From positions 23,562,001-23,626,000 of the forward strand of contig CM059432.1 of assembly GCA_030390025.1 (NCBI GenBank): a stretch of DNA of 64,000 nt, written 5' to 3'. The translations under genes were made by a program, and so were the position numbers. Below the pieces are notes generated by a model. That model worked only from the letters and a program-made list of their open reading frames with translations. It searched no databases and was not told the DNA's origin. Each line of letters starts with the position of its first letter. The stretch's first letter is position 1. This document shows, piece after piece, positions 23,351 through 29,214 of this stretch. This DNA comes from Squalus acanthias (Eukaryota).

Positions 23351-24600
23351 TGCCCTGCTGCCACATTGGGAAGGTACCAAACAGGTCAGCCTTCCTTACA
23401 TTCACCGAGTACATCATAATGCCCATAATGAAATAGGGGTCTGGTACTGAACATCCATTGTTGTTAACGGGGAACAGAACTTGAGAGCTGATCTGGAGCT
23501 AAAGAAGTCCCAGAAGTCATGCTAGTGGGTGGGTGACGTAAGAAAACTATTAGGCACTTGGTCTAAGCGTTAAACAAAGCTTTAATCAACTGTTTTCCAA
23601 CATGGAGATCTAGTTGTCCTTCCCTAGTTCCTGTTAAAGAATGTCCTGAGCAAGCTGGGCCCATGCCCGAGTATTTATACTCTCTCTGGACAGCGGCACC
23701 AGCAGGCCGCCCAGTATTATGTCATAAGTCATTTCCCATGAATGACAAGATTCATGTCATTGGGTACTTTGCAGTCGCAGCCTGCCGCATGATGTTCTGT
23801 GGTCCAGAATGCTCCAGAGTGACACTCATGTCTAGCTGAATTCATGCCTCCTACTCGGCCATGGAGATATAATCTATCATCAGAGAGTGACTGAGCACAA
23901 GTATGAGTTGATCAAAGAAAGTCAACATAGAATCTTAGCATGATACAGCACAGAAGGAGGCTATTTGACCCATCGTGCCTGTGCCGGCACTTTGGTCGAG
24001 CTATCCATTAGTCCCACTTCCCTACCCTTTCCCCAGAGCCCTGTAAATGTTTCCCTTCAAGTATTTATCCAATTCCCTTTTGAAAGTTACTATTGAATCA
24101 GCTTCCACCACCCTTTCAGGCAGTGCATGCCAGATCACAACAACTCACTGCGTAAAAAAATTTCTTCTCATCTCGCCCTCTGGTTCTTTTGCCAATCACC
24201 TTAAATCTCTGTCCTCTGGTTACCGACCCTTCTGCCACTGGGAACAGTTTCTTCTTATTTACTCTATCAAAATCGTTCATGATTTTGAACACCTCTATTA
24301 AATCTCCTCTTAACTTCCTCTGCCCTAAGGCGAACAACTCCAGCTTCTCCAGTCTCTGTACATAACTGAAGTCCCTCATCCCTGGTACCATTCTAGTAAA
24401 TCTCTTCTGCACCCTCTCTAAGACCTTGAAATCCTTCCTAAAGTGTGGTGCCCAGAATTGAACACAATACTCCAGCTGAGGCCTAACCAGTGTTTTTTAA
24501 AGGTTTATCATAACTTCCTTGCTTTTGTACTCTATGCCTCTATTAATAAAATTGAGAGGTCGCACAACACCAGGTTATAGTCCAACAGTTTTATTTGAAA

Positions 24601-24638
24601 TCACAAGCTTTCGGAACTATCGCTCCTTCCTCAGGTGA
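24601..24638 (-). ncRNA. Minimal type I hammerhead ribozyme motif (mirror copy)
   Basis: Exact reverse complement of 24835-24872. Confidence 0.85.
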
Positions 24639-24834
24639 AGTAAATTGGATACAGAATCGTCAGAGCATATATAGATGGAAAAAAAAGCATGTGTACTTTA
24701 CAATTGCAGACCAATAAATTAAATCATCCTGACTATCTGCCGAGGTGTGATAAAGATATTGGTCTGCAATTGTAAAGTACACATGCTTTTTTTTCCATCT
24801 ATATATGCTCTGACGATTCTGTATCCAATTTACT

Positions 24835-24872
24835 TCACCTGAGGAAGGAGCGATAGTTCCGAAAGCTTGTGA
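24835..24872 (+). ncRNA. Minimal type I hammerhead ribozyme motif
   Basis: UCAC-CUGAGGA-A-GGAGC(GAUA)GUUCC-GAA-AGCU-U-GUGA: stem I UCAC/GUGA, intact core, 5-bp stem II, palindromic AGCU in place of stem III. Confidence 0.85.
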
Positions 24873-25189
24873 TTTCAAATAAAACTGTTGGACTATAACC
24901 TGGTGTTGTGCGACCTCTCAATTTTGTCCACCCCAGTCCAACACCGGCATCTCCGCATCATGTCTATTAATAAAGCCAAGGATCCCATATGCTTTTTTTA
25001 ACAGCCTTCTCAACTTGTCCTGTCATCTTTAAATATTTGTGCACATACACCCCCAGGTCTCTCTCTTCCTGCACCCCCTTTAAAATGCTACCACTTTGTT
25101 TATATTGGCTCTCCTCATTCTTCCTAGCAAAACGTATCAGTTCACACTTCTCTGCATTAAATTTCATATCTGTCCAATTTAGTTCATTT

Positions 25190-27839: not shown

Positions 27840-29137
27840 AGGTGCTGGCCCAGAATTTGGGTAAGGCCCATTTTCGGGCGAAGAAGCTGGACTCCTGAGG
27901 CTCACTTGAGATTGGGACTCCTGCCTCATTTTAGTAACTGAGGTGAGCTGCCAGTGCCTGTTGCGCCTCCAGAGGGAGCTTGCCGCTTTGCTCTGCTCTA
28001 ATCTGGTCCAGCTACCTTGCTCACAGTGGCCCTCGGGTAGATCCTAGGATGGGGAGTAAATTAAAAAAAAAATGTATATTTTGGTGATGGCCTCCAACGA
28101 TCATCCGAAAGAGTGTGTTTACATTCGAAGGGATCCTTTCAGAGTTGCATCCATTTGTGACAGTCTGTGTCACAGAACGTTTTATCGTGTTTTGTTTAAT
28201 ATTAATTATGTAGCCATTCGCAATTCATAGTAGGCAATTAGAAGCTACTTCAAAGACTCCTTGGTATGATAAAATTGTGTATCGAGTTTCTTTATATATG
28301 ATCAGAAATGAATTCAGTTATTGATGCAGAATCTGGTGTGCAACTTGTGTTTTCGTGTTCTGTCAAAAAAAAAAGAAGGGGTATGTCTGATGCATCAATG
28401 CAAGTGTTTACAATTGTTGCATCAGTATAGTTTATATACTGTGTGTTAAGGTAATTTAATGAAGTGCACCAGTGCCTGAATTGGTAAATGCACCGTCCTA
28501 TGACATATTAAGCCAGCAGGGTGATAGTTGTGATCACAGTTGGTGCTGAATTAGCCGATCCAAGCCCAAGGTAGAAATAGGGGTTTTATATATTGGCTTT
28601 AATACCCCTGGGCAAGCAAAGGGCGATATTTGATGAAAGTGCTTGTGTGTGAACATTGAGTGAAGGCTTCATAAGGCTACACCACAAAGCTTCCTATTGT
28701 GGAATATCTTGCTGACCCTCTCCATCTAGGCTCACACATGAAGAATGGCTACTTCTTTGAGGTACAGAAAGGTTGCTGGTTCCCATGGTTGCTGGTACCG
28801 TAGCATGAGTTGTTGCTTTGAGAGGAGAAAAGGGATCGGGGTACTTAACTAAAACGGAAGTATTGGAGATTGGCTTTACATAAACAGTGATCAAGTTTCT
28901 TAGCAATACATGCAACAGGAGGCTGGATGGCTTAAGTAAGAGAGCATAATGTGTTTTGAGGAAAGAATTGTAAAACAACAGATACCATTACAGTGATGAA
29001 ATGGAGTGGGGTGATATAAGGATTATCTTCATTGTTTTTTAATTGCAGCATTTTCTAACGTCACTGAAGCATTTTCTTGCTGTGATGTAATTTGCTCTTT
29101 GGTTTCTTTGCTTCCAGGTGATGCACTGGGATAGATC

Positions 29138-29214
29138 ATGTCTGAAGTACAAGGAACTGTTGAGTTTTCAGTCGAGCTGCACAAATTTTACAATGTGGAC
29201 CTCTTTCAGCGAGG
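29138..29214 (+). CDS. FAM135B: FAM135B first coding exon (exon begins 29118 with 20 nt of 5'UTR)
   Basis: Translates MSEVQGTVEFSVELHKFYNVDLFQR(G), the FAM135 N-terminus; GTVEFSVELHK fits FAM135B rather than FAM135A. Acceptor tttctttgcttccag ends 29117; donor GG|gtgaga at 29215; 77 coding nt, phase 2. Confidence 0.93.

Follow-up and report, generated by a model that had tools for sequence, protein, structure and literature searches.

The insert that interrupts a decayed LINE fragment in the window (the whole stretch of 64,000 nucleotides analysed here, G000:C8:23562001-23626000) consists of two 5'-truncated copies, placed head to head, of the 3' end of a young Penelope-like element (PLE). Its identity as a fold-back insertion of a young PLE, proposed in the initial annotation, is virtually certain, and it was probably produced by reverse transcription primed from both ends of a palindromic target. 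The features of the insert and its surroundings are listed below, with positions counted from the first nucleotide of the window.

24027 to 25170, minus strand: decayed LINE fragment, presumably of CR1 type, into which the element inserted at the position that the family uses most often; approximate bounds
24535 to 24538, plus strand: left half-site of the target palindrome, TGCC, from the sequence and the family motif
24539 to 24550, plus strand: left copy of the 12-bp target-site duplication; its last 3 nt match the element (microhomology, tail-less start site)
24548 to 24755, minus strand: PLE 3' end in inverted orientation and lacking the tail; it spans -242 to -35 of the parent, counted from the ATG of the ORF
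24601 to 24638, minus strand: minimal type I hammerhead motif, minus-strand copy
24717 to 24756, no strand: loop of 39 nt of element sequence (inverted copy only) plus an untemplated A at 24756
24757 to 24962, plus strand: forward copy of the PLE 3' end with its tail, parent coordinates -203 to +2
24800 to 24836, plus strand: TATA-like box at 24800 and initiator-like A at 24832, 32 nt apart, a predicted element promoter
24835 to 24872, plus strand: minimal type I hammerhead motif, plus-strand copy, with a predicted cut after 24868
24926 to 24962, plus strand: one-sided 37-nt tail, ending at 24960-24962 in the start codon of the parent ORF
24963 to 24974, plus strand: right copy of the 12-bp target-site duplication
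24975 to 24978, plus strand: right half-site of the target palindrome, GCCA
29118 to 29214, plus strand: neighbouring coding exon with acceptor, ATG at 29138 and donor (context only)

Every structural claim made earlier for the insert, namely perfect arms, a spacer, a one-sided tail, a target-site duplication and a hammerhead in each arm, was reproduced. The inverted arms (24548-24716 and 24757-24925) are 169 nt each, 100% complementary and 40 nt apart, and the 37-nt tail is present on the right side only. The exact 12-nt direct repeats of the target-site duplication enclose an insert of 412 nt (24551-24962), the first 3 nt of the left arm being at the same time the last 3 nt of the left duplication copy. 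The 40-nt spacer kept its length and was refined in content: it is not unique DNA and consists of 39 nt of element sequence extending the left arm and one untemplated A. The predicted promoter pair of the right arm is mirrored in the left arm, with its initiator-like A at 24641. Read without the insert, the flank corresponds on the minus strand to the C-terminal part of a decayed LINE ORF2, and we take this LINE to be a CR1.

Both arms match the 3' end of a young subfamily copy (L028) with 0 mismatches over 208 and 204 nt. The first relatives found were 86-95% identical, and the subfamily with the exact letters was found later; homogenisation of the arms by gene conversion, considered while those first relatives lacked the letters shared by the arms, was dropped once the matching subfamily appeared. 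The parent is represented by a 3,138-bp unit from a tandem array on C2 (L088), in which the two complete units compared are identical. Head-to-tail arrays of such units occupy L088/L089 (G000:C2:211211000-211229900), and tandem and inverted arrangements of 3,138-bp units are combined at a C1 locus (L090/L091, G000:C1:223717000-223731000). The insert differs from the intact unit by 2 mismatches per arm, located in the right arm at positions 24813 and 24857, and the C-to-T change at 24857 turns a G-C pair of stem II of the hammerhead into G-U.

The parent unit carries one intact ORF of 892 aa (L088:2581-5256) that encodes a reverse transcriptase (PF00078, E 2.7e-8, 34.2 bits with a cut-off of 29.6) and, in its C-terminal 142 aa, a GIY-YIG endonuclease (PF01541, 22.9 bits with a cut-off of 22.6). 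In a 105-row alignment of the query and 104 of the 120 relatives listed, the DKG and YIDD motifs and residues Y805, G807, R816, E866 and N881 are conserved; the CCHH residues C796, C800, H820 and H836 are conserved in 99-103 rows, and the CX2-5CxxC linker between reverse transcriptase and endonuclease (C753-X4-C758-XX-C761) in 102-104. The parent hence has the single ORF with reverse transcriptase and C-terminal GIY-YIG that characterizes endonuclease-positive PLEs, as well as the linker of the Neptune/Nematis type, and the insert itself is devoid of coding sequence. The nearest named protein relatives, among the matches listed, are shark proteins with 82-94% identity. These relatives, together with the intact identical tandem units, speak for the possibly active shark PLE suggested earlier; of the proposed very recent insertion, youth and a possibly active parent stand, and the age is only bounded, by 0 differences over 412 nt. 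One shark gene model, epn2 (P0014), includes 29% of the PLE protein at 94% identity and is probably an annotation chimera.

The tandem or partial-tandem units, the inverted truncated copy, the one-sided tail of 30-40 bp and the target-site duplication agree with what is expected of PLEs. In the parts of the literature at hand on endonuclease-bearing PLEs (PMC8557442, PMC3846280, PMC2377424), an inverted pLTR with a 30-40-bp tail is described, and the family shares with those elements 5'-truncated copies, tandem units with an adjacent inverted copy, a one-sided tail reaching the ORF start, a target-site duplication and TATA/Inr-like motifs in the pLTR. Their duplications are variable, 8-10 bp in the rotifer examples, whereas here they measure about 12 bp and lie in a two-sided palindrome. 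A non-LTR retrozyme, defined in the source available to us as non-coding head-to-tail tandem repeats, each with a hammerhead (10.64898/2026.07.22.740005), was ruled out, as the two copies lie head to head on opposite strands and the parent is coding.

The genome-wide search for the arm, as proposed in the initial annotation, returned 16,465 exact occurrences of a 20-nt arm-end word. The first 100 of these matches fall into 76 loci, with 23 head-to-head and 0 tail-to-tail pairs among them, which scales to a family of about 12,500 loci. The expectation that the locus is unusual was not borne out: the exact 31-nt hammerhead core occurs 1,874 times in the genome, and pairs of minimal hammerheads on opposite strands, 100-700 bp apart, have already been described (PMC4209133, as far as that source was available). 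With thousands of equivalent family loci and an architecture already published, the locus is an ordinary one. Two smaller observations concern where copies lie. At L053 the element has inserted into another member of its family, within the 3' untranslated part. At L184, L185, L189 and L194 the family ends adjoin one short repeat, where duplications are unreadable; the same repeat is found in ~67-bp tandem arrays beside the copies L021, L024 and L025 and represents a further recurrent target or partner repeat.

Comparison of family members revealed two fixed start zones on the element, one near -38 and the other at 0 to +5 (counted from the ATG), with one zone used per end of an insertion. With the duplication set to 12 nt, the junction could be placed at the tail-less end in 72 of 81 insertions, at the tailed end in 66 and at both in 58; the first templated base clusters at -38 in the former, and the last templated base in the latter falls mostly between -1 and +5. 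Microhomology between target and RNA at the junctions is 1-3 nt long, with a mean of 1.74 nt at the tail-less site against 0.77 nt in shuffled controls (n=72) and 1.41 against 0.43 nt at the ATG site (n=66), the sites not being independent in either case. In 39 two-arm insertions the tail is present only in the forward copy, and in 38 of them the inverted copy ends 35-45 nt short of the tail end. Arm lengths differ from locus to locus, loops range from 1 to 1,996 nt, and the gap or overlap between the head-to-head copies is 0-5 nt in 35 of 39.

Each arm of the insert in the window holds sequence that is absent from the other, and thus neither arm is a fold-back copy of the other; furthermore, a tail-less copy that is longer than the tailed one, as here, requires two primings on RNA. 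Fold-back self-priming of the cDNA after a single target priming, or synthesis on an antisense template, has been suggested for the mirror arm of rotifer Penelope elements (PMC3846280, in the part at hand) and would suit the junctions that are near-perfect palindromes, with a loop of at most 6 nt in 11 of 39 insertions. It is nevertheless unlikely to account for this family: the longer copy is the forward one in 14 of 39 insertions but the inverted one in 25, this insert included, and what extends further 5' in the tail-less copy could not be copied from the tailed one, nor the tail from the tail-less copy, while both ends have their own start zone and their own microhomology with the target. 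Two-ended priming, the reading that we prefer as probable, would proceed as follows. The element's endonuclease, taken to act symmetrically and probably as a dimer, would nick the two strands of the palindromic target at points 12 nt from each other and so leave 3' overhangs of 12 nt. One target end would then prime reverse transcription at the tail-less site (around -38) and the other at the ATG, and the two cDNAs, having stopped at different points, would be joined head to head. Sequential nicking by one enzyme would give the same footprint as a double nick.

A palindrome, TG(G)Y-N12-R(C)CA, is common to the reconstructed empty sites and appears in the window as TGCC-12-GCCA. Maximal duplications measure 11-15 nt with a mode of 12 in 43 of 43 two-arm discovery sites; as they are 13-15 nt long in more than half of the sites, the nick positions, or the extension before the switch to RNA, may be variable. 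When each homology cluster of discovery sites is counted once, 18 of the 25 independent clusters have both TG (at -4/-3) and CA (at +14/+15) flanking a core of 12 nt (null mean 0.24, maximum 4 in 5,000 draws), compared with 0-5 clusters for other core lengths (8-11 and 13-16 nt). For validation, 60 further loci were taken from the first arm-end matches; 11 had no duplication, 49 had one, and 39 of these measured 12-17 nt, the 10 outside this range being excluded from the count. Both half-sites were found in 26 of the 39 (null 0.40, maximum 4 in 5,000), and one or both were absent in 13. When the analysis was confined to duplications of exactly 12 nt, which set the register independently of the motif, both half-sites were present in 16 of 23 clusters against a background of 0.55%. 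Neither half-site predominates (weighted counts 33.5 and 34.7 of 43). After symmetrisation the matrix gives (C/A)TG(G)(C/T) on one side and its mirror image on the other, separated by a 12-nt core with 73% AT (background 56%). The samples come almost all from one chromosome, and the 81 sites form 43 clusters, since many of the sites are copies of a few repeat positions.

A linker of this kind has been hypothesised to bias insertion to microsatellites (PMC8557442), and published PLEs, in the sections at hand, show moderate target preference or the microsatellite bias of the linker clade (PMC8557442, PMC3846280, PMC2377424), whereas no microsatellite preference is seen here: judged by eye, the 81 printed reconstructed sites show no such bias and are AT-rich instead. 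The palindrome may be specific to this family, since PAc, a Poseidon-type PLE of Anolis carolinensis, is described as using a short AT-rich motif and a reverse transcription start that is non-homologous to the target (PMC11167929, in the part at hand). Neither a palindromic target motif nor two-ended priming was found for PLEs in the literature searched. Relative to that literature the TG(G)Y-N12-R(C)CA rule is new, and a prior description may exist.

Out of the 81 insertions, 19 including that of the window lie at one CR1 position, in both orientations, and this position is the best fit to the palindrome. Its filled junction occurs 785 times (one orientation, exact), against 8,097 exact occurrences of the empty site and 44,442 with two mismatches. 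The 30 hot-spot examples fetched differ in arm length and subfamily, with a median flank identity of about 90%, and hence represent separate events. Together with two further clusters of 8 sites each at other LINE coding positions, such figures could suggest that the element targets CR1 as such, as a safe haven or through a long CR1 sequence, and not the short degenerate palindrome. This appears distinctly unlikely. The hot spot took 14 of 42 insertions in discovery and 5 of 39 in the validation set alone, and most clusters (38 of 43) consist of one site away from it. When the hot-spot cluster was withheld from training, the weight matrix gave the site 11-18 bits and an expected share of 5-30%, a range that includes the 23% observed. 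No CR1-specific mechanism is therefore needed to account for the hot spot. A short motif and an abundant LINE would accordingly be enough to create an apparent 'transposon-in-transposon' hot spot without dedicated targeting.

The composition of the core seems to matter as well. In another CR1 subfamily (L050, L188, L210) the element has landed 15 nt away from the hot-spot position. There the half-sites of the homologous site are good but its core is richer in GC, and insertion took place at the adjacent AT-rich core, an indication that core composition contributes to the choice. Among the fetched hot-spot copies (L108-L137), the tailed end mostly reaches +5, where the final two bases of the element are identical to the pair that precedes the left duplication copy; this could arise from a nick placed 2 nt farther outward, or from brief extension on DNA before the switch to RNA. 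In some of these copies the forward part is the tail alone.

Whether the PLE encodes a sequence-selective, two-fold symmetric machine that reads TG(G)Y-N12-R(C)CA, generates 12-nt 3' overhangs and uses two fixed priming sites on its RNA is a question on which we see the chances as even. If so, such a machine would account in one step for three marks of PLE insertions across animals, namely inverted repeats, a one-sided tail and a target-site duplication. By reading a split palindrome and priming from both ends, such a retroelement would depart from the priming used by L1 and R2. In L1 twin priming, both target nicks prime cDNA synthesis and an inversion results, the two cDNAs covering different parts of the RNA. 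The cDNAs of the shark PLE, by contrast, overlap almost fully, so that a duplication and a hairpin arise, and their two start zones are fixed.

On the origin of the inverted repeats and one-sided tails of PLEs there is one in vitro study, that of PAc, and it goes as far as nicking and first-strand synthesis. In that work both strands were cut and extended, and PAc resembles the shark element in two reverse transcription start sites that bound the tail, in a predicted dimer and in a hammerhead that is dispensable for PAc insertion (PMC11167929, in the part at hand). Reverse transcription of PAc begins within the ORF, at +111 to +118, and an ATT motif is preferred (PMC11167929), whereas the start zones here are -38 and the ATG; the shark element also shows short microhomology and, unlike PAc, encodes a protein with the cysteine linker of the Neptune/Nematis type. 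In the main text on PAc the word 'duplication' is absent and 'inverted' is used only for a blocking group, so that this text holds no account of inverted insertions (PMC11167929). On the simplest reading, the two-ended model would join the PAc results, extension of both strands and two start sites, into such an account. The young family with its thousands of clean insertions offers a footprint that predicts the nicks, the overhang, the two primer sites and the preferred substrate, and the intact 892-aa frame and the defined target make the symmetric-machine reading directly testable.

The hammerhead motif comprises stem I (4 bp), CUGAGGA, an additional A, stem II (5 bp, one of its pairs G-U), GAAA, an AGCU palindrome and a U at position 17. 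The claim of a minimal hammerhead in each arm was upheld, with the core, the extra nucleotide, G10.1-C11.1, the palindromic helix III region and helices I and II all present. The short helix I, the position of the extra nucleotide between 9 and 10.1, the G10.1-C11.1 pair, the palindromic helix III region and the opposite-strand pairing of motifs are shared with the minimal hammerheads described for metazoan PLEs, whereas stem II has 5 bp here and 7-8 bp in the schistosome consensus, and cleavage here is a prediction (PMC4209133, in the part at hand). When the motif was folded alone, predicted pairing probabilities were 0.81-0.87 for stem I and 1.0 for stem II. The suggested search with hammerhead models did not recover the motif: the Rfam scan of the insert gave only hairpin-type models below their gathering scores and no hammerhead match at E<=10, and the miRNA-type matches among them were discarded as generic hairpin matches. 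Stem covariation among genomic copies, raised as a criterion in the initial annotation, was observed with a constant core: the fetched loci contain a C-G to U-A double change and three G-U variants in stem II, a C-G to U-A change in stem I and a loop II of 4-9 nt, in a search pattern that demanded at least 3 pairs per stem and so favoured this result. The fetched loci hold other hammerhead families too, including one with C at core position 4 and another with different stem I and stem II sequences.

In read-through RNA of either strand, the folding comparison places the long hairpin 72 kcal/mol better than the hammerhead fold, and the antisense arm is transcribed first whichever strand is read; the hammerhead is thus predicted to be locked. 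This makes the self-cleavage of a host pre-mRNA considered earlier unlikely, and its counterpart, a long dsRNA hairpin sequestering the ribozyme, becomes the predicted RNA state. At this locus the hammerhead would be a passenger, predicted to be sequestered in any read-through RNA. The element's own RNA may behave differently. Of 99 arms from the validation loci, 26 have their end between -133 and -124, where the initiator-like A sits 32 nt behind the TATA-like box, and we infer that this pile-up marks the putative transcription start, which would place the ribozyme, unsequestered, at the very 5' end of the element's RNA. Arm ends close to the predicted cleavage site (-95 to -91) are rare (5 of 99; 8 ends at -109, probably an alignment break at the variable loop II, were left out), and hammerhead-cleaved RNA was rejected as the template on this count; uncleaved RNA would be the usual one. 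Minimal hammerheads are reported to show no cleavage as monomers and weak cleavage as dimers (PMC4209133), and the anole PLE hammerhead needs protein for cleavage (PMC11167929), in the parts of both sources at hand.

The coding exon placed 4.1 kb downstream of the insert on the plus strand was confirmed with its acceptor, its ATG at 29138 and its donor. We take the exon at 29118-29214 to be FAM135B-like; a Pfam search with its 26 residues gave no match. An action of the insertion on this neighbouring gene, by ribozyme cleavage, by a dsRNA hairpin subject to editing or feeding small RNAs, or by a divergent promoter pair, could draw on the perfect 169-bp hairpin predicted in read-through RNA and on the outward-pointing TATA-like/initiator-like pair of each arm, from which RNA would start with an unpaired hammerhead, the plus-strand arm pointing towards the exon 4.3 kb away. 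We regard it as very improbable, and the earlier suggestion found no support: the locus is one of thousands of equivalent ones, the copy is too young for any conservation test, and the monomer inactivity, dimer weakness (PMC4209133) and protein requirement (PMC11167929) reported in the available parts of these sources argue against cleavage. Most likely, the locus has no host function.

An assembly artefact, or a MITE-like DNA element bounded by terminal inverted repeats, is scarcely credible as the source of the palindrome, for although the arms are perfect and no contig from four sequencing runs spans the locus, the exact duplication lies at the family-typical target, the tail is one-sided, arm lengths vary across the family and the parent encodes a reverse transcriptase. 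A MITE or foldback DNA transposon was ruled out by the same one-sided tail, by the loops of 1 to 1,996 nt and by the locus-specific arm lengths. Among the 24 sequencing runs listed, none contained half of the sampled words and none was labelled as RNA. Contigs of four runs held joints that skip the insert, with sides below 30 nt and at repeat-level depth, and hence not specific to the locus. In the run of organism B, cover was 15.7 over 24638-24754 against over 200,000, at 97% likeness, which would fit a lineage-specific subfamily, low cover alone being no proof. A run presumed to be RNA contains family sequence, but also the flanking LINE. Elsewhere in the window, an older degraded copy of the same PLE family, 85-96% identical to the intact unit, occupies positions 12-767 on the minus strand and carries the end of the ORF and a variant hammerhead.
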